From the NCBI GenBank assembly GCA_002418205.1, contig DIDP01000008.1, positions 129,123 to 193,122 on the forward strand: a stretch of 64,000 nucleotides of DNA, written 5' to 3'. Under the pieces are notes generated by a model. The model saw only the letters and a list, made by a program, of their open reading frames with translations. It did no database searches and was not told the origin of the DNA. The stretch's first letter is position 1. Each line of letters opens with the position of its first letter. Positions 24,454 to 63,872 of this stretch are shown here, piece by piece. The stretch comes from Anaerolineales bacterium UBA5797 (GTDB lineage Bacteria; Chloroflexota; Anaerolineae; Anaerolineales; Villigracilaceae). A program made the position numbers and the translations under genes.

Positions 24454-24477
24454 AAGAGCCAACAATCATCCAAAGGC

Positions 24478-24758
24478 AATGACAGAGGAAAGTAGGCTGG
24501 CGGGAGTCGCCAGAGAGATGTAACGGAAACGCTGAAAGTTACATTCGTCCGAAACCAGTTGAAGTTCCCTCTCGAGCCGTTCATGTGAAGGCGTGTCAAG
24601 TGTCAGGTTCCACGTGTCACGGTGGTAGTATGAACCGCAGTCCCAGCGTTACCGGGGAGGCTGATGATGGTCAGCACGAGTGAGCCTGAACAGGCTAATC
24701 TGGGTGGTACCGCGGGAAGCGTAAACGCTCTCGTCCCATTTGTGGACGGGAGTTTTTT
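24478..24758 (+). promoter_or_regulatory. T-box riboswitch leader (tRNA-Phe-type) controlling pheS-pheT
   Basis: T-box sequence AATCTGGGTGGTACCGCG (24697..24714). Stem I elements: AGTA (24491..24494), AG bulge AGAGA (24512..24516) and distal hairpin ATGTAAC/GTTACAT. Candidate specifier GAA-G-TTC, with TTC at 24565..24567. Terminator hairpin plus T6 at the 3' end. Confidence 0.85.
24728..24758 (+). terminator. T-box leader terminator
   Basis: CTCTCGTCC (24728..24736) pairs with GGACGGGAG (24744..24752): 9 bp including one G-U, loop CATTTGT, then TTTTTT (24753..24758). Confidence 0.85.
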
Positions 24759-24854: not shown

Positions 24855-24871
24855 AGATCATGGAGGTACGA

Positions 24872-25930
24872 ATGCTGGAACAATTGAAAGAGATCGAAAA
24901 GACCGCACTGGATGCACTAAGCGAGGTCACCGATCCAGCCGTGCTCGAAGCCTGGCGCGTTGCGAACGTTGGGCGCAGTTCGCCGTTGATGCAGGTCTTT
25001 GCCGGGCTGGGGAAACTCTCCAAGGAGGAGCGACCAACCGTCGGGGCGGCGGCGAACCGTGTCAAGGTGGCGCTCGAATCCGCTTTGGAGGAAAGGGCTC
25101 AGGCGATCAAAGAGGCGGCGTTGGCGAAATCCCTCGAGGAAGAATCGCTGGATGTTACGCTGCCAGGACGCGGTATCCATGTTGGACGGTTGCATCCATC
25201 CACACAGCAACTGCGCCGTGTGTTGGATATCCTTGCGGATATGGGCTTTCAGGTCTATACGTCGCGCGAAGTGGAAACGGATGAGGTCAACTTCCAGTTG
25301 CTCAACTTCCCGCCGAACCATCCCGCGCGTGACATGCAGGATACATTCTTTATCGAAGCCGGGGAACGCGGTGATAACCCGATCCTTTTGCGCACCCATA
25401 CCTCACCGGGGCAGATCCACGCGATGCGTGAGTTCGCCGCAGCTAACCCTGATAATCCGCCACCGATCCGGATTGCCCTGCCGGGGATGTGTTTCCGGTA
25501 TGAGCAGATCACGGCGCGCTCGGAAATCCAGTTCAACCAGGTGGAGGGACTCGTGGTGGGCGAGAACATTACCTTTGCCGATTTGAAGGGGACGTTGAGC
25601 GATTTCGCGCGGCGTATGTTTGGTCAGCACGCGCGAACCCGCTTCCGCGCTTCCTACTTCCCGTTCACGGAACCGTCCGCTGAGATGGATGTGGAATGTT
25701 TTGTCTGCGGCGGGGCAGGCTGCCAGGTCTGCAAGAATTCGGGCTGGCTCGAAATTCTCGGATGCGGCATGGTGCACCCTGTCGTGTTGCAGAACGGCGG
25801 GTACGACCCCAGGCGTTATTCGGGTTATGCCTGGGGTATGGGGCCGGAGCGCCAGTTGATGGTGCGCTACCGCATCGATGATATTCGATACTTCTGGGGA
25901 AACGACCTGCGTTTCCTTGGGCAGTTCTAG
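24872..25930 (+). CDS. pheS: Phenylalanine--tRNA ligase alpha subunit
   Basis: Class II aaRS motifs (FRYEQITARSEIQFNQVEGLVVG; GYAWGMGPERQLM). Start at ATG 24872, with GGAGG 5 nt upstream; the track start is 24860. Confidence 0.95.
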   Translation: MLEQLKEIEKTALDALSEVTDPAVLEAWRVANVGRSSPLMQVFAGLGKLSKEERPTVGAAANRVKVALESALEERAQAIKEAALAKSLEEESLDVTLPGRGIHVGRLHPSTQQLRRVLDILADMGFQVYTSREVETDEVNFQLLNFPPNHPARDMQDTFFIEAGERGDNPILLRTHTSPGQIHAMREFAAANPDNPPPIRIALPGMCFRYEQITARSEIQFNQVEGLVVGENITFADLKGTLSDFARRMFGQHARTRFRASYFPFTEPSAEMDVECFVCGGAGCQVCKNSGWLEILGCGMVHPVVLQNGGYDPRRYSGYAWGMGPERQLMVRYRIDDIRYFWGNDLRFLGQF

Positions 25931-26079: not shown

Positions 26080-28611
26080 ATGAAATTACCAATTTCTTGG
26101 CTGAAAGACTTTATCGACCTTGACGGTCTCTCCGTCGAAGAAATAGCCCGCAAGTTGACCCTCGCCGGATTGGAAGTGGAGGAGATCAAGTACGTCGGTT
26201 TGCCAGTGTCCGGCGCATCCGCCGAGGGCATGCACTCCAGCGAGCGGCACGAGTTCAAGACCAGCGGCATTGGCTGGGACCGCGAAAAGATCGTCGTGGC
26301 GGAGATCCGTGAGGTCAACCCGCATCCCAACGCGGACCGTTTGACCCTGCTCGATCTGTACGATGGGCAGCAATCCCAGGTTGTTCTCACCGGCGCGCCG
26401 AACATCTTCCATTTGAAGGGTACAGGCAAACTTGCCAGGCCGATCAAAGTGGCGTATGCCAAGGAAGGCTCGACCATCTACGACGGTCACACAGACGGAC
26501 TGGTTCTCACCACCCTCAAACGCGCCAAGATCCGCGGTGTTGAATCCTACTCGATGGTTTGCTCGGAAAAGGAACTGGGCATTTCTGAGGAACATGAGGG
26601 CATCATCATTCTCGATGACGATGCTCCGGTCGGCATGCCGCTTGTGGATTACATGGGCGATGCGGTTTTGGATATTTCCATTCTGCCGAACATGGCACGC
26701 AATGCGAGCGTCATCGGTGTTGCGCGTGAACTCGCTGCGTTGACGGGGCGCGAGCTTAAAAAGCCGAGCATCGAATACAAGACCCACGGTGAATCCGTTG
26801 AAAAACTGGCGTCCATCCAGATCACGGAGCCCGAACTCAACCCGCGCTTTGTGCTTGGGCTGATCCGCAACGTGGAGATCAAACCGAGTCCGTATAAGAC
26901 CCAGCGGCGTTTGCGGCTGGCAGGCATCCGCCCCATCAACAACATTGTGGACGCGACCAATTACGCCATGCTCGATCAGGGCGAGCCTCTCCATGCTTTT
27001 GACTACGATGTACTCAAGGAACGTGCAGGTAATAAGAACGTCAAGATCATCACCCGCGCCGCGAAAGATGGCGAAAAACTCACCACGCTCGATGACGTGG
27101 AGCGCAAACTGACCTCCGCCAATGTTTTGGTCTGCGATGAAAAGGGTCCGCTTTCGATCGCAGGTGTGATGGGTGGCGCCGAGTCTGAGGTCTCGGATGG
27201 GACGCGCAACATCCTGCTCGAAGGCGCGGCATGGAATTTCATCAACATCCGAAAAACCGCGAAACAGCATAATCTTCCGTCCGAGGCGTCGTTCCGGTTC
27301 TCGCGCGGCGTGCATCCCTCGCTGGCGGAGACCGGCGTCCGGCGCGGGTTGCAGCTTATGGCGGAATGGTCAGGTGGGGAGGTCGCGCCCGGGCTCGTGG
27401 ACGCATATCCGCTCAAACCGAAGGATTCGGTGGTGGATGTCACGCCTCAGGATGTCAAACGCCTGCTTGGCATCGATCTCACGGTTGAACAGATTTCCGA
27501 ACTGCTCACGCGGCTTGAATTCAAATGCGAAATCACCAAAGACGGACTGCGCGTTACCGCTCCTTCGCATCGCCTCGATATTGGCGAGGGCGTCGTCGGT
27601 CTGGCGGATGTGCTCGAAGAAGTTGCGCGCAGTTATGGCTACGATAACATCCCCGAAACGCGCATGGCTGATGCGCTCCCGCCGCAGATCGGCAATCCGG
27701 TCCACGAGTGGGAGGAACACCTGCGCGATATTCTCGTCAGTCTTGGCTTGCAGGAGATCGTGAGTTATCGACTGACCTCGCCCGAGCGTGAAAGCCGCGT
27801 GGCGCAATATGACGAATACGTCACGCTTGCCAACCCCATCACGCCTGACCGACGCGTCATGCGCCGCAACCTGGTTGCGTCCGTGCTGGAGGTGGTGGAA
27901 CACAACGCCCGCGCCGAGTCGAATGCCTTGTTCGAGCTCGGTCCCGTCTTTGAGCCTGTTGAAAACGATTTGCCGGACGAACCGCGCAGGCTTGTCCTTG
28001 CGATGACCGGATCAAGAGAGGCGCTGGCGTGGGATGTGAAGGACTCCCCGAACTTCGATTTCTACGACATGAAGGGGCGCGTCGAACTCCTTTTGAGCGG
28101 TCTCCGTTACACGGACGTTGTCTACGCTCCGACCGACACCGTTAATTATTTGCATCCCGGCAAAGCAGCAGAAGTGAGAGTCAATGACAAGGTTGTGGGT
28201 GTGTTCGGTGAATTGCATCCGCTGGTCAAGGACAGATATGAAGTCGAGGATGCTCCCATCCTAGTGGCGGAATTCGATCTGGACGTTTTGCACGCGGTTT
28301 CACCGGGCTATGAGATCAAACCTGTCCCCGATGTCCCGCCCGTCCTTGAGGATATTGCCGTGATCGTGGATGAATCAGTTCCGGCATCCAGAGTGGAGGC
28401 GTTGATCCGTCAGACCGGCGGCAGGGTGCTGACAAATGTCAGGCTGTTCGATCTCTATCGCGGCGAACAGATCGGCGCGGGCAAAAAGAGCCTCGCCTAC
28501 AGCCTGACGTATCAGTCTGATAAAACGATGACCGATGCCGAGGCGGCCGCGATCCGTAACAAGATCGTCAAGCGGCTGGAGCATGAGGTCAAAGCGAAGT
28601 TGAGAAGTTGA
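26080..28611 (+). CDS. pheT: Phenylalanine--tRNA ligase beta subunit
   Basis: 843-aa ORF immediately after pheS. N-terminal MKLPISWLKDFIDL... is typical of PheT, and the length fits the tRNA-binding, B3/4, B5 and FDX-ACB architecture. Confidence 0.95.
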   Translation: MKLPISWLKDFIDLDGLSVEEIARKLTLAGLEVEEIKYVGLPVSGASAEGMHSSERHEFKTSGIGWDREKIVVAEIREVNPHPNADRLTLLDLYDGQQSQVVLTGAPNIFHLKGTGKLARPIKVAYAKEGSTIYDGHTDGLVLTTLKRAKIRGVESYSMVCSEKELGISEEHEGIIILDDDAPVGMPLVDYMGDAVLDISILPNMARNASVIGVARELAALTGRELKKPSIEYKTHGESVEKLASIQITEPELNPRFVLGLIRNVEIKPSPYKTQRRLRLAGIRPINNIVDATNYAMLDQGEPLHAFDYDVLKERAGNKNVKIITRAAKDGEKLTTLDDVERKLTSANVLVCDEKGPLSIAGVMGGAESEVSDGTRNILLEGAAWNFINIRKTAKQHNLPSEASFRFSRGVHPSLAETGVRRGLQLMAEWSGGEVAPGLVDAYPLKPKDSVVDVTPQDVKRLLGIDLTVEQISELLTRLEFKCEITKDGLRVTAPSHRLDIGEGVVGLADVLEEVARSYGYDNIPETRMADALPPQIGNPVHEWEEHLRDILVSLGLQEIVSYRLTSPERESRVAQYDEYVTLANPITPDRRVMRRNLVASVLEVVEHNARAESNALFELGPVFEPVENDLPDEPRRLVLAMTGSREALAWDVKDSPNFDFYDMKGRVELLLSGLRYTDVVYAPTDTVNYLHPGKAAEVRVNDKVVGVFGELHPLVKDRYEVEDAPILVAEFDLDVLHAVSPGYEIKPVPDVPPVLEDIAVIVDESVPASRVEALIRQTGGRVLTNVRLFDLYRGEQIGAGKKSLAYSLTYQSDKTMTDAEAAAIRNKIVKRLEHEVKAKLRS

Positions 28612-37073: not shown

Positions 37074-37167
37074 TGGCGGGGAGGACAGGATTCGAACCTG
37101 CGACCGAGGATTTCGCCCCGGTAACCGCTTAGCAGGCGGCCCCATTCGACCACTCTGGCACCTCCCC
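37074..37167 (-). tRNA. tRNA-Ser (anticodon GCU), class II with long variable arm, CCA encoded
   Basis: Hand-folded sequence: GGGGAGG-TG-CCAG..ATGG-G-GCCGC-CTGCTAA-GCGGT-long arm-GCAGGTTCGAATCCTGT-CCTCCCC-G-CCA. Acceptor 7 bp, anticodon loop CU-GCU-AA, T-loop TTCGAAT. Confidence 0.95.
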
Positions 37168-37245
37168 AATGATGTTTGAAGGTGCAAGGTTTACAGGTTG
37201 GCTTGTTCGTAACTTTATACCTTCAACCTGGTAACCTGCAACCGA

Positions 37246-37333
37246 TGGCGGAGGGAGTGGGATTCGAACCCACGTTGGTGTGACCCAAACATGTTTTCAA
37301 GACATGCGCCTTCAGCCGCTCGGCCATCCCTCC
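37246..37333 (-). tRNA. tRNA-Ser (anticodon UGA), class II, CCA encoded
   Basis: Hand-folded sequence: GGAGGGA-TG-GCCG..AGGC-G-CATGT-CTTGAAA-ACATG-variable arm-GTGGGTTCGAATCCCAC-TCCCTCC-G-CCA. Confidence 0.95.
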
Positions 37334-45283: not shown

Positions 45284-46621
45284 ATGAAATACCACATCTG
45301 GACCGAAGGATGCCAGATGAACGTGGCCGACTCACAACGCGTCGGCTCGTCTCTTGAGCATCTGGGATACACCTTTACCGATAAAGCCGAAGAAGCAGAC
45401 GTTATTGTTTTGAACACCTGCGTCGTGCGTCAATCTGCGGAGGACAAGGCGCTCGGACGCCTTTCCAGCCTGCTTCCGTTAAAACGACAGAATCCCAACC
45501 TTGTCATCAACCTGATGGGATGCCTCGTCGGCGTGCGTGGTGCGGAAAAACTGCGAGAAAAACTCCCCTACGTGGACGTCTTCTCGCCGCCCTCCGACCC
45601 GGGACCGCTGGTCTCGTTCCTCACGCAGGGCGAGATCCGTTCGCTGGAGGATACCGAAACGACGCGCCGCTTCCTCATGATGGACGACGAACTCATCCTG
45701 CCGCAGCACGAACGTGGACAACTGGTCAGCGCACACGTGCCGATCGTGTATGGCTGTTCGCACGCCTGCACCTTCTGCATCATCCCGTTCCGACGCGGCA
45801 TCGAACGCAGCCGCCCGGTGGTCGATATCGTCTCCGAGATCCGTTCGCTTGCCGTTCAGGGTGTCAAAGAGATCACTCTGCTCGGTCAGATCGTGGATCG
45901 CTACGGCAAGGATATCCCCGATGGCCCCAATCTTGCAGGTCTGCTGCGTGTGGTGCATGAAGTGGAAGGCATTGAACGTATTCGTTTCTTAACCTCACAC
46001 CCGAATTATTTTGGCGAAGATTTGATGGAAGCCGTTGCAGAGCTTCCCAAAGTGATGCCGCATATCGAAGTTCCCATTCAGGCGGGGGACGATGGGGTGT
46101 TGGCGAACATGAAGCGCGGCTATACCCAAATGGAATACCGCGACCTCGTGGACCTCATCCGCAAGAAAATCCCCGACTGCTCCATCGCAACGGATATCAT
46201 CGTGGGCTTCCCCGGCGAAACCGAGGAACAGTTCATGGAAACTTACCGCGTCCTCGCGGACCTGAAACTGGACGTCGCGCATTTGGCCCGTTACTCCTCC
46301 CGCGAAGGGACCGTCGCCACGCGCCGCATGGAAGACAACGTGACCGACGAGGAAAAAATGCGCCGCTTCCGCATGTTGGAAGAGTTGCAGGAAGGGATCG
46401 TCGGCGAGATCAACAAGAAGTATCTCGGTCAAACCGTGGATGTGTTGTTCGAGGAAAAGGTCAAGAACCGTTGGAAGGGACGCACCCCCACGAACAAACT
46501 GGTCTTCGTCGAATCGGACGAAGACCTGAAAGGCAGACTCCTGCCGGTCACCGTCACGTGGACGGGACCGTGGTCCATGCAGGCCAATCTGCAAAAACAG
46601 CCTGATTTGATTCGTGTGTAG
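45284..46621 (+). CDS. miaB: tRNA-i6A37 methylthiotransferase
   Basis: 445-aa ORF. N-terminal UPF0004 cysteines (TEGCQMN, LNTCVVR, GCLVG), radical SAM CSHACTFC and a C-terminal TRAM domain. Confidence 0.9.
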   Translation: MKYHIWTEGCQMNVADSQRVGSSLEHLGYTFTDKAEEADVIVLNTCVVRQSAEDKALGRLSSLLPLKRQNPNLVINLMGCLVGVRGAEKLREKLPYVDVFSPPSDPGPLVSFLTQGEIRSLEDTETTRRFLMMDDELILPQHERGQLVSAHVPIVYGCSHACTFCIIPFRRGIERSRPVVDIVSEIRSLAVQGVKEITLLGQIVDRYGKDIPDGPNLAGLLRVVHEVEGIERIRFLTSHPNYFGEDLMEAVAELPKVMPHIEVPIQAGDDGVLANMKRGYTQMEYRDLVDLIRKKIPDCSIATDIIVGFPGETEEQFMETYRVLADLKLDVAHLARYSSREGTVATRRMEDNVTDEEKMRRFRMLEELQEGIVGEINKKYLGQTVDVLFEEKVKNRWKGRTPTNKLVFVESDEDLKGRLLPVTVTWTGPWSMQANLQKQPDLIRV

Positions 46622-46717: not shown

Positions 46718-48316
46718 TTATTTTTTTACAGGGAACCAGCGTTGGATGTCACGCCTGTTCAGAAAGAAGAAGAACGCCATTGCGGTGATCCCAAGGAAGT
46801 AGATCAAAAATGGCAGGAAGGACGCGACGCTGGTCTGTAAATTGTTGCCGGCGGCTTGCAGTTCCGAATCCGCATCCAGTGAGAGGCTGAATTGCCATAA
46901 GGTCAATATTCCAATTCCGAAAAATCCGGCTACCACCCATTTGAACGAGGAAAACCATCCAGTGCGTCGTGTGATTCCACGGAGCATCAGGTAGAGCAGG
47001 ACAAGGAAGACGATCCCATGGAAGATCAACCCGAAGAACACATTCCCGAACATGTTGTCGGACAGACTCAATAAGGCATCCAGGGACGTTTCGAAATATT
47101 TGTAGGAACTCCCGATGGTGAATGCACCCAGGAAGATCAGGAAGTAATACATGGTGGTGATGATCGGGGAATAAACCGTCTGGGAACTGACGGGTCGCAT
47201 GCCCAGCGCCTTGAGTAATTTGGATGGTTCCGGCAGTAACTTTGCAATCACATCCAGTTTCCGGACGCCCGGGCGGAAATCGATCCATTGAAGTTTTGAC
47301 AGCTTCTCCGCCAGGTTGGGGTTGGTCTGGATAAGGACGGGATAAACGACTTGTTTTTCGGGGTCAGCCTCAGTGTCCGATTTGAAGCGGGAGATCAGGA
47401 CAAATACCGCTTTTGCGCTGTGGATGTCCTGTGTGAGGATATGTCTGTGTGCTTTGAGAGCGGCGATCAAATCCTCAGCGGCGTGCCGGTCCTGGATAGC
47501 ATAATCCACGAAAAAGGAGACGGGCGCAGGTGCAAGATCATCCGGTTTGTATGGGTTTGCGAATTTTCTCATGTTCGCCTCCGGTTTGCCCCATCGCTGT
47601 AAAGCCGGGGAGCGGAGGACGAAGAAAAGTAGAAGCCCCGCAATGACGGAGATAAATATGTAGACGATCAACCTGTCGAGGTTGTTCGTTTCTGATTCGG
47701 TGATCACCGCTTCGAAGAACAATGAAAACGGAAGCATGAGCAGGGCGGCCTGCACCTGGGCAAAATTGAAGCTTCGTTTAAAAATGCGGTATGGGAGAGG
47801 AATGAGAATCCATGGCAGGAATAATGTCCATAATAACGGCAGGGTGCAGATGGCTGTGACAACGCTGACTGCAATGGTGAACCAGACGATCAGCGGCGCC
47901 TTGAACCCGGTCTCAGGGACGGGATGCTCCTCCCGAATGGGTTGTTTGAGTTGGGAAAATAGTTCCTGCAACCCAGCCTTGTAACTGCCACGGAAATCCA
48001 CCCATTCGTATTTTTCCAACTCCTTTGGCAGATCTACAGCCTCGAAGATCAGGAGGATGACGCGCTTGTTTGTTTCGAGGAAGTGTTGCCATTCCAATGT
48101 TACGTATTTTGAAGCCAGGGAAGCCTTCGACACGACCAGAAGAACCGTATCCGAGTTGTTCAACCCCTTGTCGATCTGCTCCTTCCAAGGAGTACCCGGA
48201 ACGAGGACGCGATAATCGAGCCAGACGTTGTACCCTTCGCCCTCAAGTTTGCCGACGAGGTCGTCCACGAAGCCCAATTCGCGGCGGGAATAGCTCATAA
48301 AGATGTTTTGGGTCAT
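46718..48316 (-). CDS. Membrane protein with two tandem TIR-domain plus transmembrane-block modules
   Basis: 532-aa ORF with AGGAG RBS. The N-terminal TIR_2-like pattern IFMSYSRRE..FV..L...L...GY.VWLD......G..W...I.....SD.VLLVVS..SL.S.YV..EW includes a conserved Glu (aa 75). A second, degenerate TIR-like region follows (aa about 272-375). Each is followed by about 4 hydrophobic helices. Confidence 0.8.
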   Translation of the reverse strand: MTQNIFMSYSRRELGFVDDLVGKLEGEGYNVWLDYRVLVPGTPWKEQIDKGLNNSDTVLLVVSKASLASKYVTLEWQHFLETNKRVILLIFEAVDLPKELEKYEWVDFRGSYKAGLQELFSQLKQPIREEHPVPETGFKAPLIVWFTIAVSVVTAICTLPLLWTLFLPWILIPLPYRIFKRSFNFAQVQAALLMLPFSLFFEAVITESETNNLDRLIVYIFISVIAGLLLFFVLRSPALQRWGKPEANMRKFANPYKPDDLAPAPVSFFVDYAIQDRHAAEDLIAALKAHRHILTQDIHSAKAVFVLISRFKSDTEADPEKQVVYPVLIQTNPNLAEKLSKLQWIDFRPGVRKLDVIAKLLPEPSKLLKALGMRPVSSQTVYSPIITTMYYFLIFLGAFTIGSSYKYFETSLDALLSLSDNMFGNVFFGLIFHGIVFLVLLYLMLRGITRRTGWFSSFKWVVAGFFGIGILTLWQFSLSLDADSELQAAGNNLQTSVASFLPFLIYFLGITAMAFFFFLNRRDIQRWFPVKK

Positions 48317-52896: not shown

Positions 52897-55800
52897 TCAG
52901 TTTCGTCTTCGCCTTTTTTTTCTGCCACTGCCTGCCGGTTGGGTGTTGGGTTGTATTTGAGGTTGTTGAGGCTGGTCTGTGGTCTCGACTGGATTGATCT
53001 CGATCGGTCTCCGTTGAGCAATGAATGCACGACTGACGACAAGTCCGCGAATATCTTCCACCAACTGCGCGAACATCTCGGACGCTTTCGTCTTATATTG
53101 TACCAGTGGGTCGCGTTGTGCGTAAGCCTCCAAACCGATGGAAACCCTCAAGGCTTCGATGCGGGTCAGGTAATCCACCCACAGTTCGGACGTGGCGCTC
53201 AGCAACAACTGCCTGCGGATTTCGTTCAGGACATATCTGCCAATGGCTTCGACCAACGCCTCCCGGTCGGACTCACCGAGGCCTGCCGCCGTTTCATTGA
53301 GTCTTTCCTCCCCGAAAGCCTTCTTCGCCGCCTCGCCAAAATCTGCGAGCCGTGTGGCATTCGCGGAAAGGCGGTTGTATTCGCTCTGTCCCATCGCGAA
53401 GACCAGCGCTTCCTCCGCCTCTTCGAGGTGTGCCAGCACATCTTCGGTCAATTGCTCGGCTGTGATGCCTTCCAGCAACTGCGCGATCAGGAAGATGTAC
53501 GTGAAGCGGTTGAAGACCTGCCTTACCTGCCGATGGGTCCTCTGGTCGAAGACGGTCCGTGCGCCCTGTGAGATCGTAATGAGCAGTTTCAGGATGTTCG
53601 TGTCGGTAGGTTCCGAAGGCATCAGGTTTTCAAGGTCGCGCCCGATCTGACCCTTCTCACCGACCAGACGTTCGCGGCGGCGTTCGAGGGCGTTGTCCGC
53701 GGCTTCCTGGATCATATCCGCCGCGTCGTCCCAATCCTTGACTTCGAACTTTTCCCCGAGTGATTCGCCGACGCGGTTCGCCACTGAAGCGATCAACCGT
53801 GAGGCGTAGATACCGGTCAGCTGCGCGGAAACGAAATTCCGGATGAGGTCCCTGGCTTCGTCGATATCTTCATCGAACTTCCGCAGTTGTTCGCCGTTGA
53901 GCCTGATCTGCATGCCGGTGAGGGCATTGATCTCCTCCAGTATCTTTTGCGGGCGCGGCGTCTCTTCCATGTCGCGCAAGCCATCGAAGTACGCGTCGAG
54001 CGCGTCCGTGCGGGATTCGACCTGCGCTTCGTATGCCTCTTCGGTGCGATCGATCATTTCCTCGATCGCGCGGGAATGATGAGCGTTCTCCGCTTCGATG
54101 GCGCGGGTGATGAGTTCATGGGCAGCCTGTTGAAAATCGTCGGCGTTGGACAATTCTTTTAGCAGCAGAGACAAGCCGAAGCTTGGGAAGAGCCGCTCCC
54201 CGGACATGAACGGCGGCTGGACCTGTTCGAGCCAGGCGATGAATTTCCACGGTCCCTCTTCGTCTGCCAGTCCGGTCTCCACGCGTTGTTTGATCTCGAG
54301 GTCCAGCATCTCCTGAATGTCGTCGCTCAGATCCTCCTTCGAGAAGATGCGGTCGCGTTGACCGTAGATCTGGCCGCGTTGTTTGTTGAGCACATCATCG
54401 TATTCGAGCAGATGCTTGCGGACGTCGAAGTTCGCGCCCTCCACACGGTGCTGTGAATTCTCGATGATGTTGCCAACCATGCGCACCTCCAGCGGAAGCG
54501 AATCGTCCACCTTGAGGCTTTGCATGAGGTTGCTGACGCGGTCGCCTCCGAACAGGCGCATGAGATCATCTTCGAGGGAAAGGTAGAAACGCGATGAGCC
54601 GGGGTCGCCCTGACGCGCGGCACGACCGCGCAGCTGGTTGTCGATGCGGCGGGCTTCATGGCGCTCGGAGCCAATGACGTGCAGACCGCCCAGTTCCTTG
54701 ACGCGTTCCATGTCCTCAAAGTATTGCAGGAAAAGTTTGACCTCCGCCGCGTAGATGCCATGGTTCGCGGGATCGGCGTTCTTCAACGCGACGCGGCGTT
54801 CTTCGTGGGTCATATCGAAGGGATTTTCATATCCCGATTTGCCGAGCACGCGGTTGACCGCCGCGATGACCTCCTCGGCGAGTTCGCCGCCGAGCTTGAT
54901 GTCCACGCCGCGGCCCGCCATGTTGGTGGCGATGGTCACCGCGCCGAACGCGCCGGCATCCGCGATGATCTGTGATTCCTCGGTATGTTTACGGGCGTTG
55001 AGCACCTGATGAGGCACGCCGCCCTGCAACACCTTCTTGAGCCGCTCCACATGACTTTCATCGAGCCGCAGGATTTCAAGCACGATCGGGAGGTTGGATG
55101 GGTCTTCAAGACCGATGGTGGTAACACCGAACGGCTGGATGAACTTGCGGAGTGTATCGGGTGAGACCCTGTCGAGCGGTTCGTTGAACTGCGCCAGTTC
55201 CGGGATCACGCGCCCGTCCTCTTCGCGGTTGTTCTCGCGCATCCAAATGTGTCGGACGAGGGTGATCTGAAGCAAGCGGCGGACAGGTTCCGCCTTGAGT
55301 CGCTGCGAAAGGACCTCGGAGGATTCCACGGAAGTTGTGCCGACCAACAGAGGCCGCCCGCGTACATGTTCGCGCACGATCTCCATCACCATCGAGCGCA
55401 GTTTGGCTTCCACGGTGCGGAAGATGACATCCGGGTAATCCTGGCGGCGATAGAAAAGCGGGTTCTGTTCGGGATCGTCGCGCTTTGCGAAATAGGAGTA
55501 GGCATAGCCTTCGTCATCCTTGGTCTTGATCTCGGTGAGCGGCGCATCCTTGCCGAACGCCTGATACTCAAGGTTGGGCGGAATTGGCGCAACTTCGAGT
55601 TTATAGATCTTGTCGAACTCCTCCGCTTCGGTGAGGGCGGTGCCGGTCATGCCCGAAAGCTTTTGGTACATGCGGAAGTAGTTTTGCAATGTGATGGTCG
55701 CGTAGGTGACGTTTTCCGGCTCGATCTTGACGCCTTCCTTGGCTTCCACCGCCTGATGCAGACCATCGCTCCATCTTCGTCCCGGCATGAGACGCCCGGT

Positions 55801-56907
55801 GAATTCGTCCACGATCACGACCTTGCCCGCCTGCACAAGATAATCCTTGTTGCGCTTGAACAGGAATTGGGCGCGCAGCGCCTGTTCGAGGTAGCCCCTC
55901 AAGCGTGCCTGCTGCGGAGTGACATCCTCCGGTCGTTCGGGATCCATCAGAGGCTGCCCCAGCATCTGTTCGACGCGCGCCAGCCCGATCTCCGTGATCG
56001 AGACGTTGCGGTCCTTTTCGTTGACCTCATAATCTTCAGGCTTGAGTTGCTTCATGATCTGCGCAAATTTGCCGTACCATTCCAGATCCCCTGATGAAGG
56101 ACCGGAGATGATCAACGGCGTGCGCGCTTCATCGATCAGCACGTTGTCCACTTCGTCGATGATCGCGAAATGATGACCGCGCTGCACCCGGTCGCTCAGG
56201 CGCATGGTCATGTTATCGCGCAGATAATCAAAGCCGAACTCGGAATTGGTCCCATAGGTCACATCGGCTTCGTAGGCGTAATGCCGGTCCACCAGGCGTA
56301 AATGGTGCTGGTCCTCGTGCGGCGACTCACGCTCCAGATCGACCAGAAAAGCCTTTTTCCCGTTTTCGGTTGCGGCCGCCATTTGCAAAACGCCCACGGT
56401 CAAACCGAGCATGTCAAAGATCGGCGACATCCAGCGCGCATCGCGCCTGGCAAGATAATCATTGACCGTAATGAGATGGATGCCTTTTCCGAGCAGTGCA
56501 TTGAGATAGATCGGCAGTGTCGCGACAAGCGTCTTGCCTTCGCCCGTCCGCATTTCGGCGATCGAGCCGCGATGCAGGATGATCCCTCCGATCAATTGGA
56601 CATCATAATGCCGCAGACCGATCGTCCGTTTGGATGTCTCGCGGACGGTGGCAAACGCTTCCGGCAGGATCTCTTCCAGCGCTTCCTGCTCAGCCTCGAA
56701 CTGCTCCCGTTCATCGAGCCCATCCAAATTCCCAAGCGACTCGGCAACGCGCGCCCGGAACTCCTCCGTTTTTGCGCGTAACGCATCATCACTCAAAGCC
56801 TCGAACTGCGCTTCAAGCGAATTGATCTGGTCCACAACACCACTCAATTGTTCGATGGCTTTTCTGTTGGGGTCTCCCCCGAAGATTTTGACAAAATTCT
56901 TTAACAT
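52897..56907 (-). CDS. secA: Preprotein translocase ATPase SecA (unusually long, 1336 aa)
   Basis: Canonical SecA blocks: [10 protein letters not shown] (Walker A), [69 protein letters not shown] and [28 protein letters not shown]. Several long inserts (see findings). Confidence 0.95.
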   Translation of the reverse strand: [1336 protein letters not shown]

Positions 56908-59245: not shown

Positions 59246-60379
59246 TTACGGCCGTTCGCCGAGTGTGATCGTCACATCCACAGTTTGACCATCCCGCAGA
59301 ACGGTCAGCACCACCGTATCACCCGGGGATTTGTTGACGATGAGGTAACTCAATAACTGGTCGAAGGTTGAGATCGGTTTGCCGTCGAAGGCGACGATCA
59401 GGTCGCCGCCCGCGTTCAGACCCTGGAGTCGTGTGGGGGTTGTGCCTGCCCTTATGCCAGCCTTGTCTGCAGGACCTCCCGACGCAACATCGAGCACATA
59501 GGCGCCAGTATAGGTGTTCAATCCCAATGCTTCGATCTCGTTCAGGCTGAGGTCGCTCGAGGAAGTGATCCCCAGATAGGGATACTTGTATTCCCCGTCA
59601 CGGATCAACACCGGGACGACGCGCTTGACCAGGTTGATCGAGACAGAAAACCCGACACCCGAATTGACGGCATTGCCGGTCACCTGGTTGAAGCTTTCCG
59701 TGCGAATTGACTGGTTGATCCCGACCACTTCACCGTTCAAATTGAATAACGGACCACCTGAGTTGCCGGGGTTGATCGCCGCGTCGGTCTGGATGATATC
59801 GGCGGTGCTGAAGAAGCCTCCGCCGCCCGGCGCCTGGTGCGCGGGCTGTGTCCTCCCGAGTCCGGAGATGATGCCAAGTGTCATCGTGCCGCTCAAGCCA
59901 AAGGGATTGCCGATCGCAACGACCGGCTGACCGACATTGAGCAGATCGGAATTACCGATATTAAGCGGGTGGATCTGTTCGGTAGGCGCGTCCACTTTGA
60001 TCACTGCAACGTCGGCATCCGCGTCGGAGCCGATGACCGTGCCGTAGGCTTTATAGCCCGATGCGAAGGAGACCTCAACGGTGCCCGCACCTTCGATCAC
60101 ATGCTGGTTCGTGACAACATGACCTTCATTGTCGAACACAAAACCGGAGCCAAGACTGCCGTTATCCGTTCCTATTGCGACAACGCCCGGAAGCACATTT
60201 TGATAGAGCACCTCGAGCGAGCCATCCAGCGGGATGGTTGTCTCGGATTGCACTCGAAGGGTGGGAACGGCCTGGACCGCTGGTGAAGGCGTCGGTTGGG
60301 AAAGAGGCGTGAGTCCGGGGAGTTGGCACGCCAGGATCGCAAAGGTCAAGACCAGAATTGCCGAAATGATTCTTTTCAT
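59246..60379 (-). CDS. htrA: HtrA/DegP-family serine protease with PDZ domain (lipoprotein-type signal)
   Basis: 377-aa ORF. Triad context TNQHVI, DADVAVIKV and GNSGGPL. C-terminal PDZ (GAYVLDVASGGPADKAGI). Lipobox FAILAC. Confidence 0.9.
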   Translation of the reverse strand: MKRIISAILVLTFAILACQLPGLTPLSQPTPSPAVQAVPTLRVQSETTIPLDGSLEVLYQNVLPGVVAIGTDNGSLGSGFVFDNEGHVVTNQHVIEGAGTVEVSFASGYKAYGTVIGSDADADVAVIKVDAPTEQIHPLNIGNSDLLNVGQPVVAIGNPFGLSGTMTLGIISGLGRTQPAHQAPGGGGFFSTADIIQTDAAINPGNSGGPLFNLNGEVVGINQSIRTESFNQVTGNAVNSGVGFSVSINLVKRVVPVLIRDGEYKYPYLGITSSSDLSLNEIEALGLNTYTGAYVLDVASGGPADKAGIRAGTTPTRLQGLNAGGDLIVAFDGKPISTFDQLLSYLIVNKSPGDTVVLTVLRDGQTVDVTITLGERP

Positions 60380-60390
60380 TCGTACTGCTC

Positions 60391-61281
60391 CTAAAACTTT
60401 ATCTTTGAAACTTCCTCAAGGAGTTCGCGTTGTTTGGGCGACAGGTAACGCGGGATCTGTACTTTGAGTTTTACAAACAGGTCGCCCTTTTCCTTCGAGT
60501 TTTTGACGTGCGGCATGCCGCGTCCCGCAAGCCGGAAAACCTGCTCAGGCTGGGTGCCTGCCGGGACATTGAGCTTGACCCTGCCTTCCATCGTTTCCAC
60601 ATCGGCTTCACCGCCGAGGATGGCTGTGAACACATCCACGGTTGCCGTGGTGTGCAGGTCGTTGCCGCGGCGCTCGAAGCGCGGGTCGTCCTTAACGTCC
60701 ACGATCAGATACAGGTCGAGACCATTGGGCCCCGCGCCCGCCACGCGCACTTTCGAACCGGTACGAACACCGGCGGGAATACGCACTTGTTTCTGCTTGC
60801 CGTCCGTTTGCAATAAGCGGGTTGTGCCCTTGTAGGCTTCCTCGAGCGTAACCCCAAGTTCCTGTTGATAGCCCTGTGGCTGCGATCGCGCCGAAGCGCG
60901 TCCGCCTCCCATGCCGAAGATGGTCTGGAAGAAATCGGAGAAGCCGCCCCCACCGCCGAACAGATCGTTGAGGTCGTCGATGTTGACGCGCGTGCCGCCG
61001 GGGAAACCGCCGTATTGGTCCCAGTTGAAATTGCCGGGCGCGCCGCGTCGCTGCCAGCTCGAGTAGTCACTGCCAAGCCGGTCGTAATGCGAACGCTTTT
61101 TGGAATCGCTCAACACTTCATAGGCTTCGTTGATCTCCTTGAAGCGCTCCTCGGCGTCCTTGTTGTTCGGGTTGTAATCCGGGTGATATTGTTTTGCCAG
61201 TTTGCGATATGCCTTGCGGATCTCATCATCGCTGGCTTTACGGTCCACACCCAGGATCTTGTAATAATCCTTGTACTCCAT
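60391..61281 (-). CDS. cbpA: J-domain co-chaperone without zinc-finger region (CbpA-like)
   Basis: Start at [35 protein letters not shown] (HPD motif), then a G/F region and DnaJ C-terminal domains. No CxxCxGxG repeats. Confidence 0.85.
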
Positions 61282-61288
61282 ATTATCA

Positions 61289-61317
61289 ATTGTCACACCG
61301 CGGGATAGGCGAGTCAA
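61289..61317 (-). promoter_or_regulatory. Near-consensus sigma-70 promoter placed for leaderless transcription of the cbpA-like gene
   Basis: The minus strand reads TTGACT (61317..61312), a 17-nt spacer, GACAAT (61294..61289), then 7 nt (TGATAAT) and ATG at 61281. No SD. Confidence 0.55.
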
Positions 61318-61401
61318 GCACACGCATGCAGGTCTAACACAACTCTAATTCATGGATGATGGGATGGAGCCGCTTCTTTCCCCGCCGACGGCTGATTCCG
61401 T

Positions 61402-63108
61402 TTAAACGATTTGTTTTACCAGATAAAGCTCCCCGCGCTCGAAGCCGCGGTCGAGATAGTAGCCGCGCGTGCCCACCGCCGAAATGACCGCCATCCGCTC
61501 GAAACCGTTCGCCCTGGCGAGGCGTTCCGCCTCCTCGAGCAGGCGCGTCCCCAGCCCGGCGTGCTGCGCCGCGCCCTCTTTTTCCATGCCCACCTGCAGC
61601 GACTGTCCATAGACGTGCACTTCACGGATCAATGCCGCGCCACCGAGATCGGAAATCCCTGTTTGCGGAGAATTTTCACCCGGCAGCGACAAGCGGATGA
61701 ATCCCGCCAGTTTATCGTCCGGCGTCACGTACGAGATGAAGTGTTCCTCCGCCGCGCCCGCCTGATAGACCAAATCATCCAGTTTCAAGGAGTCGATGCT
61801 CACGGGCTTGCCGCGCACCTCCCGACAGCGCACACACTGACATTTTGTGCCGCGCCGCTTCATCTCCTCATGCACATCCTGCCGCAGACTTGTACGGCGG
61901 TTCCCTTCGACGACGTTCGTTGACGGAATATCGCGGATGACGCGGTTGACGCGGCAATACCTCGGGATGGTCGGCTTGACGTCCGCGATCAGGTCGATGA
62001 GCTCCTCGGTGGTGTAGGGCGTGAACTCGCCCCGCTGCCAGTATTCATATAATTCGGCATTTGCTAGCAATTGATTGGGATAGATCTTGATCTCGTCCGG
62101 GCAGAAGCCGTTCCACAGGCGGGCGAAATCTTCGCGGTCCGATTCCGGTGTCGCGCCGAGCAGGTTGGGCATCCAGTGCAGGACGATCTTGAAGCCCGCC
62201 GCGCGCAATAACGCGACTGCCTTGCGCGTGCATTCCACATCATGCCCGCGCTTGTTGAGTTCAAGAATACGGTCATCGAGACTTTGCGCGCCCATCTGCA
62301 CCTTGGTCACACCGAGGTGGCGCAGCCAGCGGATCTCATCCGGCGTGATCTCATCGGGCCGCGTCTCGATGACCAGTCCCACATTGCGGTGGTGGGTGGT
62401 TTCGTTGATAGAGTGGTCTATCTCCAACTCGCCGCCTTCCACTTTCTGTTCGCCTGTGCTGCCCCCCTCGGTCCCCCCATTTTGCGGAGCAGAATAGGGG
62501 GATGAAGGGGGGGGATTCATCGCATCAAAGCAGCGCTTGACGAACCATTCCTGATAATCCCGCCGATACGAGGACCACGTCCCGCCGAGGATCAACAACT
62601 CGATCTTATCGGTGGGATGTCCCAAACTCTGCAATTGTTCGATGCGCGAGCGCACCTGCGCATACGGATCGAATTGATGCTCGACCGCGCGCATCGCACC
62701 GGGTTCGTCCGGCAGGTACGATTTGGGCATCCGCACGTCGGTGGGGCAGAAGATGCATTTGCCGGGACACGGATACGGCTTGGTCAGAACCGTGACTGTC
62801 GTCACGCCGGACAGCGTCCGCATGGGTTTCATCCGGATGCGCTCGAGCAGGCGCGCGTCCTCCTGCATCTCTCCCGCCGCGACCATTTCGTTATAGATCG
62901 TCACCAGCATGGACTTGTTCAAATATCCGCCGCCCTCCAGCGGGTGACTGCGCAGAGTCTTCGTCACGTCGCGCCCGCGCCGGATCTGTTCCAGCACATG
63001 TCGCGCAAGGTCTTTTTTATCGGGGGTCAGCAGGTGGGATTCGCGCCAGCGTTCTCTTCGTTCGGGATGCATCATTTCTGTTCCACTAAAACCATCATCT
63101 GAAAACAT
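61402..63108 (-). CDS. elp3: Elp3-type radical SAM / GNAT tRNA U34 modification enzyme
   Basis: 568-aa ORF. TVLTKPYPCPGKCIFCP radical SAM cluster, SYLPDEPGAMRA, DPY.QV..R..QL...GH..DKIELLILGGTW, and a C-terminal GNAT QHAGLGTRLLEEAERLA...AVISAVGTRGYY. The start may be internal (MMHPERRE, about 63075). Confidence 0.9.
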   Translation of the reverse strand: MFSDDGFSGTEMMHPERRERWRESHLLTPDKKDLARHVLEQIRRGRDVTKTLRSHPLEGGGYLNKSMLVTIYNEMVAAGEMQEDARLLERIRMKPMRTLSGVTTVTVLTKPYPCPGKCIFCPTDVRMPKSYLPDEPGAMRAVEHQFDPYAQVRSRIEQLQSLGHPTDKIELLILGGTWSSYRRDYQEWFVKRCFDAMNPPPSSPYSAPQNGGTEGGSTGEQKVEGGELEIDHSINETTHHRNVGLVIETRPDEITPDEIRWLRHLGVTKVQMGAQSLDDRILELNKRGHDVECTRKAVALLRAAGFKIVLHWMPNLLGATPESDREDFARLWNGFCPDEIKIYPNQLLANAELYEYWQRGEFTPYTTEELIDLIADVKPTIPRYCRVNRVIRDIPSTNVVEGNRRTSLRQDVHEEMKRRGTKCQCVRCREVRGKPVSIDSLKLDDLVYQAGAAEEHFISYVTPDDKLAGFIRLSLPGENSPQTGISDLGGAALIREVHVYGQSLQVGMEKEGAAQHAGLGTRLLEEAERLARANGFERMAVISAVGTRGYYLDRGFERGELYLVKQIV

Positions 63109-63137
63109 GACAGGATTATACCCATTATAATCGCCCC

Positions 63138-63872
63138 ATGGATTCGAGCACTGCCCGGCGCCTCATCGAACTCAACCGCGAGTTTTATACGCGCTTCGGC
63201 GATTCGTTCTCCGCCACGCGTCAGCGCATCCAGCCCGGCGTGCGGCGCGTCCTCAAGAAGTTGAACGGGGATGAAGACATCCTGGATCTGGGGTGCGGCA
63301 ACGGGGAACTGGCGCGCGAACTGGCGCAGCGCGGACACCGCGGCTCGTATCTGGGCGTGGACTTCAGCCTGCCTCTGCTCCAACATGCCGAATCCATCCC
63401 GGAAGGTTTTTCCGCCAGATTTGTGGAGGCGGATCTTACAAAGCTTTCAGATTTCAAGGATCAGCTTTCAGCGAATGGCAAGTGGTCTGTGGTTACTGCC
63501 TTTGCGGTGCTGCATCATGTTCCGTCTGTTGAATTGCGATTGGATATATTGCGAACTGTCCATGACTTATTGAAGGATGATGGTCTGTTCATCCACTCGA
63601 ACTGGCAATTCCTGAACAGCGAAAAACTCAAAGCGAGGATCCAGCCGTGGGAAACGGTATCAATTTCAGGTCTGGAGGTGGAGGCGGGCGATCATCTGCT
63701 CGATTGGCGGAGTGGGGGAAAAGGTCTGCGTTATGTTCATCACTTCAGCGAATCCGAATTGAATGAATTGGCAAGGGCTTCGGGGTTTCAAGTGATCGAA
63801 ACTTTTTATTCCGATGGCGCAGGCGGGGATTTGGGACTGTACCAGGTCTGGCAGGCTGAATCTAAACGCTGA
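63138..63872 (+). CDS. Class I SAM-dependent methyltransferase, Trm9/ALKBH8-MTase-like
   Basis: 244-aa ORF. Motif I ILDLGCGNGELA, post-II VTAFAVLHHVPS, LLKDDGLFI, and C-terminal W....G.GLRYVHHFSESEL, which resembles the Trm9-family RYYHVF.EGEL block (recalled). Confidence 0.8.
   Translation: MDSSTARRLIELNREFYTRFGDSFSATRQRIQPGVRRVLKKLNGDEDILDLGCGNGELARELAQRGHRGSYLGVDFSLPLLQHAESIPEGFSARFVEADLTKLSDFKDQLSANGKWSVVTAFAVLHHVPSVELRLDILRTVHDLLKDDGLFIHSNWQFLNSEKLKARIQPWETVSISGLEVEAGDHLLDWRSGGKGLRYVHHFSESELNELARASGFQVIETFYSDGAGGDLGLYQVWQAESKR

Follow-up and report, generated by a model that had tools for sequence, protein, structure and literature searches.

What does a bacterial Elp3 do when its gene stands head to head with that of a methyltransferase? 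The question is raised by one end of a 64,000-nt stretch of contig DIDP01000008.1 from the Anaerolineales bacterium UBA5797 (the window, meaning the whole stretch that was analysed), where a gene for Elp3 and a gene for a class I S-adenosylmethionine (SAM) methyltransferase diverge from a very short spacer. Bacteria are the textbook users of MnmE and MnmG for modification of C5 of the wobble uridine of tRNA (U34), and the pathway that leads from Elp3 to Trm9 is established in eukaryotes.

The analysis indicates that the two proteins probably form a two-enzyme wobble-uridine module. Elp3 would act alone, as archaeal Elp3 does, and would combine radical-SAM chemistry with acetyl-CoA to carboxymethylate C5 of U34 in some tRNAs, giving 5-carboxymethyluridine (cm5U). 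The divergently encoded, Trm9-like methyltransferase would use SAM to esterify the carboxylate of cm5U, giving 5-methoxycarbonylmethyluridine (mcm5U), or its 2-thio derivative (mcm5s2U) if the tRNA is also 2-thiolated. Four observations form the basis of this reading: membership of the Elp3 family, similarity to the Trm9 profile together with the carboxylate- and base-contacting residues, a linkage that spans phyla and in which both genes diverge together, and purifying selection. What we infer beyond them is the chemistry of both steps in this organism, the choice of substrate tRNAs, independence of a Trm112-type partner, and co-regulation of the two genes.

Identity of the two enzymes

The call of Elp3 in the initial annotation of the locus held. 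The protein scored 496.3 bits against the curated NCBIfam model TIGR01211 (cut-off 350, residues 74-567) and has the full set of Pfam domains: Radical_SAM, Radical_SAM_C and Acetyltransf_1 (GNAT, residues 453-556). Its closest solved structures in a PDB search were the Elp3 of Dehalococcoides mccartyi (DmcElp3, 5L7J, E 5e-110) and that of M. infernus (MinElp3, 1.7e-108). The acetyl-CoA-binding motif Q515-H516-x-G518-x-G520 (QHxGxG) is invariant in the Elp3 alignment, as are the cysteines of the [4Fe-4S] motif (Table 1). The median ratio of nonsynonymous to synonymous substitution rates (dN/dS) against close relatives was about 0.09 for Elp3 and about 0.16 for the methyltransferase, which denotes purifying selection in both cases; dS was high and the values are rough.

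Whether METHYLTRANSFERASE is Trm9-like was addressed with a single-sequence PDB search, then with a family profile, the active-site residues and a fold search. Pfam matches of the methyltransferase were to generic domains only (Methyltransf_23/25/11). All named NCBIfam families stayed far under their cut-offs, and their matches were confined to the SAM-binding half of the protein: UbiG reached 36.2 bits (cut-off 103), BioC 36.3 (185), UbiE 31.1 (216) and MenG/UbiE 26.5 (158). A comparison with the non-tRNA methyltransferase families (UbiE and others), proposed as a check in the initial annotation, thus showed no clustering with any of them. An identity as CmoM was rejected as well: NF008264 (cut-off 366) scored 17.5 bits and matched only residues 35-87, which contain the SAM motif.

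The single-sequence PDB search yielded weak, generic matches. Among its five best hits, two gave near-full-length alignments, and of these only the Trm9 of Yarrowia (5CM2 chain Z, query residues 27-225) has a known function. Because this search was weak, a family profile was needed. The 50%-clustered representatives of the methyltransferase numbered 275 at E <= 1e-30, and an alignment of 72 full-length homologues, 34-52% identical to the window protein, was used as the profile (alignment A1). The top PDB hit of this profile was Yarrowia lipolytica Trm9 (5cm2_Z, E 4.5e-19, 71.6 bits), followed by a hit of 56 bits. The alignment with Trm9 spans profile positions 25-220, and Trm9 was the only hit covering the C-terminal, substrate-side half. 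For a distant methyltransferase from the candidate phyla radiation (CPR), Trm9 was the best PDB hit even with the single sequence as query (3.6e-15).

The AlphaFold2 model of the window methyltransferase has a predicted local distance difference test (pLDDT) score of 96.7, and its fold alignment with Trm9 shows about 19% identity. A fold search cannot single out the family; the assignment to Trm9 therefore rests on the sequence profile and the active-site residues. In the automated annotation of the Joint Genome Institute (JGI) many homologues are named TRM9 and one 'alkB family protein 8'; some pipelines name homologues UbiE or plain 'SAM-dependent methyltransferase'. The likeness to Trm9/ALKBH8 had first been proposed from three motifs, ILDLGCGNG, AVLHHVPS and GLRYVHHFSESEL, all of which were found in the 244-aa protein. 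It is borne out by the profile, for which Trm9 is the best solved structure from end to end, and by the retention of active-site residues. The window holds a second class I methyltransferase (688-1596, 302 aa, Methyltransf_23), which was considered as a paralogue and discarded: its score with the family profile was 32 bits, and it carries IEH in place of the HH motif.

In Saccharomyces cerevisiae Trm9 (ScTrm9), mutagenesis identified R29, D72, H116, W145, W168, R241, Y243 and N271 as needed, fully or strongly (Letoquart et al. 2015, PMC4678810). The D72A mutation abolished SAM binding and H116A inactivated the enzyme; among the alanine mutants, Y243A kept about 10% of the activity and the N271 mutant about 4% (PMC4678810). 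Y243 serves tRNA binding and catalysis. In the ScTrm9 model, H115, H116, R29, R241 and Y18 lie around the carboxylate of cm5U, W145 stacks on U34, and N271 hydrogen-bonds to O2 and N3 of U34 (PMC4678810).

Most of these residues have counterparts in the window protein that are conserved in A1: R28 for R29 (72/72), D75 for D72 (70/72), W156 for W145 (71/72), W190 for W168 (72/72), R198 for R241 (72/72) and Y17 for Y18 (72/72); the histidine pair is given in Table 1. Two positions differ. The equivalent of Y243, position 200, is V, C, A, I or L in the A1 family; the forms from CPR and Dehalococcoidia have Y there. The column that most probably corresponds to N271 holds N in 73 of 83 diverse homologues, and G (35), N (17), S (11) or A (7) among the 72 sequences of A1. 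The other signature residues, namely R29, D72, H116, W145, W168, R241, Y18 and H115, are retained almost without exception in the 80 distant homologues. Judged by sequence, the bacterial methyltransferase family as a whole carries the residues expected of a Trm9. The window protein has six of the eight key residues, and for this reason it is called Trm9-like and not canonical Trm9. Given V in place of Y243 and G in place of N271, base recognition in the window clade may differ in detail from that of canonical Trm9.

The same substitutions are the ground for an alternative, in which the methyltransferase works with Elp3 on U34 of tRNA in a non-canonical manner, with a different substrate form (e.g. 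cm5s2U, the 2-thio form of cm5U) or a different end product in the window clade. Besides the V, C or A that replaces Y at position 200, many closer relatives have G, S or A at position 233, whose Trm9 counterpart N271 contacts O2 and N3 of U34 in the model. The gene is still under purifying selection. However, the residues proposed to hold the carboxylate or to stack on the base (R28, H126/H127, W156, R198 and Y17) are unchanged, SAM-dependent carboxyl methylation is the only chemistry known for such an active site, and the N271 register is itself inferred. We regard a non-canonical substrate or product as unlikely, and the esterification of cm5U to mcm5U remains the preferred reading.

Conservation of the pairing

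In the initial annotation it was proposed that the pairing be checked in related genomes. It was found to be kept in loci of Anaerolineales (74/80), in distant metagenome loci (46/52), in Dehalococcoidia-type loci (6/7) and in the CPR.

The Anaerolineales set comprised 80 genome loci whose Elp3 is 74-89% identical to that of the window, and the methyltransferase gene of the paired loci lies upstream of the Elp3 gene in divergent orientation. The six unpaired loci have 1027 nt or less of upstream sequence each. The two genes are directly adjacent, as in the window, in 30 of the paired loci; in the other 44 a CysH-like gene lies between them. This open reading frame (ORF), on the Elp3 strand, encodes a phosphoadenosine phosphosulfate/adenosine phosphosulfate (PAPS/APS) reductase (PF01507, E 5.7e-42; motifs CC...CxxC and ECGLH) and is missing from the window. 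Short CysH-like remnants in the gaps of two loci (L044 and L062) suggest that it was lost by deletion. Of the co-regulation that had been proposed from the head-to-head arrangement, the divergent orientation is kept; a shared promoter region of 29 nt is not universal, since CysH intervenes in 44 of 74 loci.

Outside the Anaerolineales, a methyltransferase that is 35% identical to that of the window (P0264) was found head to head with a 47%-identical Elp3, among neighbours otherwise unrelated to those of the window. A metagenome scan seeded with distant members (a five-sequence alignment) gave 80 further loci, whose methyltransferases are 24-44% identical to that of the window, except in one locus (L098, 59%). 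Pairing was scored in the 52 of them with at least 1.5 kb of upstream sequence; in the paired loci the divergent Elp3 gene is the immediate upstream neighbour, at a median distance of about 120 nt. The most distant group, which has the canonical RYYH and N, belongs by NCBI names to Parcubacteria, Paceibacterales and Nealsonbacteria (CPR). An archaeal origin of this group had been considered and was ruled out by these names.

The Dehalococcoidia-type loci were sampled from the Elp3 side, and the paired ones are D. mccartyi and five of the six others. In D. mccartyi the Trm9-like gene lies divergently beside the very Elp3 that was crystallised (Table 1), and its product carries the motifs FRHR, FHH, TVW, VPW, RYYR and RNICLLLEK. 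No mention of this neighbour of DmcElp3 was found in the accessible literature.

The distances among the methyltransferases and among the Elp3 proteins were compared over 117 loci and gave a Mantel r of 0.97, or 0.87 when the Anaerolineales were left out; none of 999 permutations reached as high a value. This tight correlation argues that both genes travelled together, and the persistence of the pair in distant loci whose other neighbours differ indicates more than local synteny. The adjacency could in principle be inherited synteny with no functional coupling, the methyltransferase being of a generic small-molecule or protein type (UbiE/UbiG-like), as the generic Pfam domains, the UbiE names of some pipelines and the non-specific fold search would allow. 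This explanation is already largely refuted and we hold it to be highly improbable: the pairing persists at 24-40% identity of the methyltransferase and 37-57% of Elp3, in Chloroflexota and CPR alike, with all other neighbours different, the two genes co-diverge, the named NCBIfam models fall far under their cut-offs, and outside the SAM site the residues specific to Trm9 do not vary. A functional pair of Elp3 and a Trm9-like enzyme accounts for the locus better.

Elp3 is also more widespread among bacteria than the initial annotation, which spoke of scattered occurrence, had it. A genome scan with the single window Elp3, which returned only close Anaerolineales relatives, gave 517 confirmed stretches encoding them, and when 8000 candidates from a search seeded with DmcElp3 were scored, at least 7996 proteins reached E <= 1e-30. 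The window holds an unremarkable example of a bacterial cassette, widespread and conserved, that joins Elp3 to a Trm9-like methyltransferase.

The proposed wobble-uridine module weighed

A last alternative, that the pair acts on a non-wobble target (another RNA or a metabolite) or that the methyltransferase methylates Elp3 itself, could draw on the lack of a known bacterial in vivo product and on the weak in vitro activity of DmcElp3 (PMC7663514), but DmcElp3 binds tRNA and its hydrolysis of acetyl-CoA is specifically triggered by tRNA (PMC6367351), the window Elp3 has the full architecture with an N-terminal extension, and the methyltransferase keeps the uridine- and carboxylate-site residues of Trm9, so that we give such targets very little credence.

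Several observations weigh against a module in which Elp3 makes cm5U and the Trm9-like enzyme esterifies it. Eukaryotic and archaeal Trm9 need Trm112, the archaeal enzyme in vivo, and neither the scanned ORFs of the window nor the surroundings of the pair in 170 loci yielded a Trm112-like ORF. Of the eight Trm9 residues of functional importance, the window methyltransferase has replaced two: V200 stands for Y243 and, in an inferred register, G233 for N271. The fold search against the PDB was flat: dozens of class I methyltransferases had equal scores, and Trm9 came second in this list. With the D. mccartyi partner as single query Trm9 ranked only seventh in the PDB, and the assignment of that protein therefore rests on its family-profile score and the signature residues. 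Six of the 52 distant methyltransferase loci and one of the seven Dehalococcoidia-type Elp3 loci are unpaired within the available sequence. The latter (L166) has no methyltransferase within 6 kb; the former (L110, L135, L143, L147, L150 and L152) bear the signature and have Elp3-free flanks of 1.9-5 kb upstream and 0.5-5 kb downstream. The partner of these unpaired genes may sit elsewhere in the respective genomes. Finally, according to a 2020 review, direct evidence for xcm5U is lacking in the bacteria that have Elp3 (PMC7663514).

A Pfam survey of the window ORFs of at least 180 aa detected no MnmA, MnmE, MnmG, Cmo or Trm112 genes in the 64 kb.

In Dehalococcoidia-type loci a conserved ORF of about 72 aa was observed on the same strand as the Trm9-like gene and just past it. 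It encodes a zinc ribbon with four cysteines (CPxC-x18-CWKC) and a charged tail. It had no Pfam match and no similarity to Trm112 in a PDB profile search, and homologues were found neither in the Anaerolineales and CPR loci nor in the window. The protein is a candidate small partner of the methyltransferase in Dehalococcoidia.

Taken together, the two-step reaction from Elp3 to a Trm9-like enzyme, as the initial annotation had suggested, is supported by the sequence data: the methyltransferase falls in no non-tRNA family, and relatives keep the pair. A more far-reaching proposal is put forward only tentatively. Anaerolineales, Dehalococcoidia, Parcubacteria/CPR and others would make mcm5U-type U34 by means of a self-contained, vertically co-inherited and Trm112-free cassette of Elp3 and a Trm9-like methyltransferase; the Anaerolineales would have re-tooled the uridine contacts (Y to V/C, N to G/S/A) for a different substrate form or product, and would express the cassette from a bidirectional promoter of about 30 nt as leaderless mRNAs.

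The locus and its relation to known systems

The features of the locus, and those of related loci referred to above, are collected in Table 1. Both ORFs have the coordinates and strands given to them in the initial annotation, and the spacer is 29 nt long, or 62-65 nt if Elp3 begins at M12 or M13 (MMHPERRE).

Table 1. Coordinates of the Elp3/methyltransferase locus in the window and of selected ORFs in related loci
Feature	Position	Strand	Basis or remark
Elp3, radical-SAM + GNAT, predicted tRNA U34 cm5U synthase, 568 aa	61402-63108	-	TIGR01211, Pfam, PDB
Trm9-like class I SAM methyltransferase, 244 aa, predicted cm5U34 to mcm5U	63138-63872	+	Profile, AlphaFold2
Divergent Elp3/methyltransferase spacer, 29 nt	63109-63137	.	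Sequence, conserved -10-like boxes
TATAAT, methyltransferase side	63126-63131	+	Ends 6 nt before the methyltransferase ATG
TATAAT, Elp3 side	63120-63115	-	Ends 6 nt before the Elp3 ATG at 63108
N-terminal Elp3 extension, residues 1-93, missing from DmcElp3	62830-63108	-	DmcElp3 alignment begins at query residue 94
Radical-SAM [4Fe-4S] motif C114-x3-C118-x2-C121 (CPGKCIFC)	62746-62769	-	Cysteines invariant in 38-sequence Elp3 alignment
Low-complexity insert PPPSSPYSAPQNGGTEGGSTGEQKVEGGELE, residues 197-229, hypervariable surface loop of the radical-SAM domain	62422-62520	-	Length survey, AlphaFold2
SAM motif I, I47-G55 (ILDLGCGNG)	63276-63302	+	D50, G52 and G54 invariant or nearly so
Acidic SAM-ribose ligand D75 (ScTrm9 D72)	63360-63362	+	70/72 sequences
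H126-H127 (ScTrm9 H115-H116; Y. lipolytica H126-H127), proposed cm5U carboxylate positioning	63513-63518	+	H126 65/72, H127 72/72
R198-Y199-V200-H201 (ScTrm9 R241-Y242-Y243-H)	63729-63740	+	R241 kept, Y243 replaced by V
G233, probable equivalent of ScTrm9 N271	63834-63836	+	Register inferred from C-terminal '..N-x-Y..' block
J-protein type II (DnaJ + DnaJ_C)	60391-61323	-	Downstream of Elp3; Pfam, NCBIfam
HtrA/DegP-family protease (Trypsin_2 + PDZ)	59246-60379	-	Downstream of Elp3; Pfam, NCBIfam
CysH-like ORF, examples	L021 9253-9984; L066 9226-9972	Elp3 strand	
D. mccartyi Trm9-like gene, 224 aa (CP019867.1)	L164 5283-5957		Divergent, 44 nt upstream of crystallised DmcElp3
Zinc-ribbon ORF, Dehalococcoidia-type loci	L164 4423-4650; L165 4387-4605; L167 2967-3185; L168 2691-2909; L169 3005-3217; L170 3002-3226		

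Read from the Elp3 side, the spacer is CAT-GGGGCG-ATTATAAT-GGG-TATAAT-CCTGTC-ATG. On the methyltransferase side, 64 of 72 Anaerolineales loci have a perfect TATAAT whose end is exactly 6 nt from the ATG; with 5-7 nt allowed, the number is 70 of 72, and loci in which CysH intervenes are among them. Such a distance between TATAAT and ATG is what a leaderless mRNA would be expected to show. A simple sigma-70 scan of the spacer, however, found no full promoter, for want of a -35 match. The spacer would be a compact bidirectional promoter of about 30 nt that gives leaderless or near-leaderless mRNAs and co-regulates both genes; its size suggests that the footprints of two RNA polymerases would overlap. 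Fragments of HtrA, J-protein, Elp3 and methyltransferase were present in one metatranscriptome assembly, as unstranded contigs that lack 5' ends; these RNA-derived contigs are weak evidence of expression.

In relatives whose two genes are directly adjacent, GG(G)TATAAT is found on the Elp3 side 7-11 nt ahead of the ATG that is equivalent to window residue 11-13; the conserved Elp3 protein thus begins at M12 or M13 (63075 or 63072). The 11 extra N-terminal codons are not conserved and are predicted to be disordered, yet they are placed as for a leaderless start. Both starts, at 63108 and at M12/M13, are possible.

Two loci (L003 and L005) have longer spacers between methyltransferase and Elp3, in which GC-rich inverted repeats (e.g. 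AACGTTCTCTAACG...CGTTAGAGAACG) lie between both -10 boxes. These repeats look like small mobile or repetitive extragenic palindromic (REP)-like hairpins.

The N-terminal extension of the window Elp3 is modelled as helical at residues 15-92 and disordered at residues 1-13 (predicted secondary structure and pLDDT), and it is moderately basic, with 19.5% K+R in residues 12-93. The Elp3s of Anaerolineales, CPR-like and other groups have N-terminal extensions of about 72-93 residues, as do most of the bacterial Elp3s sampled. The N-termini of archaeal and eukaryotic Elp3 bind tRNA (PMC6367351), and the poor affinity of DmcElp3 for tRNA and its weak activity have been connected with its lack of such an extension (PMC6367351, PMC7663514). 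N-terminally extended bacterial Elp3s may have a higher affinity for tRNA than DmcElp3, and, as the latter is without the extension, the Elp3s of Anaerolineales and CPR are perhaps better biochemical models.

The low-complexity insert in the radical-SAM domain, which had been singled out in the initial annotation, is real. It is not a special feature but an ordinary hypervariable loop, modelled as disordered: the length of the loop ranges over 18-104 residues across bacterial Elp3s, with 45 in the window and about 22 in DmcElp3, and in the AlphaFold2 model pLDDT is below 50 at residues 202-206 and 209-225 and no secondary structure is predicted at 198-226.

The J-protein and HtrA genes are same-strand neighbours of Elp3, as had been noted, and lie downstream of it in most of the closer Anaerolineales loci. 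They are not beside Elp3 in most of loci L045-L079, nor in L081 or the Dehalococcoidia-type loci whose gene content was examined. Their linkage is local synteny only, outside the conserved module.

Elsewhere in the window, a T-box leader (RF00230, 104 bits) at 24470-24741 lies directly upstream of pheS (24860-25930) and pheT (26080-28611). Tandem genes for tRNA-Ser(GCU) and tRNA-Ser(UGA) occupy 37074-37333 on the minus strand; the anticodon of tRNA-Ser(UGA) has U34, and it is conceivable that this tRNA is a substrate of Elp3. Another RNA or protein modification enzyme, a radical-SAM methylthiotransferase of the MiaB/RimO/MtaB type (UPF0004 + Radical_SAM + TRAM), is encoded at 45284-46621. The gene at 46718-48316 codes for a 532-aa protein with an N-terminal TIR domain (TIR_2, 3e-31; weak ThsB_TIR) and may be related to defence. 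An ORF of 1336 aa at 52897-56907, which by eye we take to be SecA-like, has an unusual length for a SecA and a C-terminal tail that is basic and rich in Q and P. In metagenomes, the window organism occurs in bioreactor, sludge and sediment.

The published picture of bacterial Elp3 is corrected by these results. A 2017 review found no bacterial homologues of Trm112-dependent methyltransferases detectable, and Trm9 orthologues seemed limited to Sulfolobales and Halobacteriales (PMC5372719). Bacterial Elp3 was viewed as an oddity of Dehalococcoides, lacking both a known downstream enzyme and in vivo evidence for its product (PMC7663514); in the literature it appears in Dehalococcoides (2016-2020) and in 'numerous bacteria' (2026), with the partner unmentioned, and PMC10849945 mentions Elp3 in archaea only. 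The literature searched, the coverage of which was incomplete, contained no account of a Trm9 partner for a bacterial Elp3. The correction was partly foreshadowed by automated TRM9 labels and follows by analogy.

Bacterial Elp3, the crystallised D. mccartyi enzyme included, almost always has a Trm9-like partner, which makes the role of bacterial Elp3 directly testable. If the proposed pathway is true, a modification of the mcm5U type, so far documented only in eukaryotes and archaea, would also be bacterial. The methyltransferase offers structural and mechanistic work a Trm9 that is possibly independent of a partner, with natural variants at two uridine-contact positions, and the Elp3/Trm9-like pair could serve as a marker for tracing the spread of an Elongator-type pathway between domains.

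Among known systems, the closest to the window methyltransferase is Trm9-Trm112 (S. cerevisiae; Y. lipolytica 5CM2; the methyltransferase domains of ALKBH8 and TRMT9B), which shares the class I SAM fold, the conserved key residues and the tie to Elp3. In contrast to it, the model of the window methyltransferase shows an additional helix at the N-terminus (residues 3-26) and a lengthened segment at 160-185, the window clade has V200 and G233 where Trm9 has Y243 and N271, no Trm112 partner was detected, and the host is bacterial. The archaeal systems (Haloferax volcanii HVO_1032; Sulfolobus solfataricus) resemble the locus in having a stand-alone Elp3, without Elp1/2/4-6, together with a Trm9 orthologue; MinElp3 alone makes cm5U, HvoTrm9-Trm112 makes mcm5U, and the Elp3 and Trm9 genes cluster in Sulfolobus (PMC6144793, PMC5372719). 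They differ in that Trm112 is needed in vivo.

DmcElp3 (5L7J) and MinElp3 have the same domain architecture as the window Elp3, and D. mccartyi shares the divergent Trm9-like neighbour. Unlike DmcElp3, the window protein has a 93-residue N-terminal extension (MinElp3 and eukaryotic Elp3s have an extension too) and a disordered loop that is 23 residues longer. CmoM of Escherichia coli, which converts 5-oxyacetic acid uridine (cmo5U34) to its methyl ester (mcmo5U34), is a functional analogue, being a bacterial SAM-dependent carboxyl methyltransferase that acts on a wobble-uridine side chain; it belongs to another family and works downstream of CmoA/CmoB, not of Elp3. MnmE/MnmG (with MnmC) have the same target, C5 of U34, and serve the same decoding purpose as the proposed pair, with unrelated enzymes and chemistry (PMC7663514).

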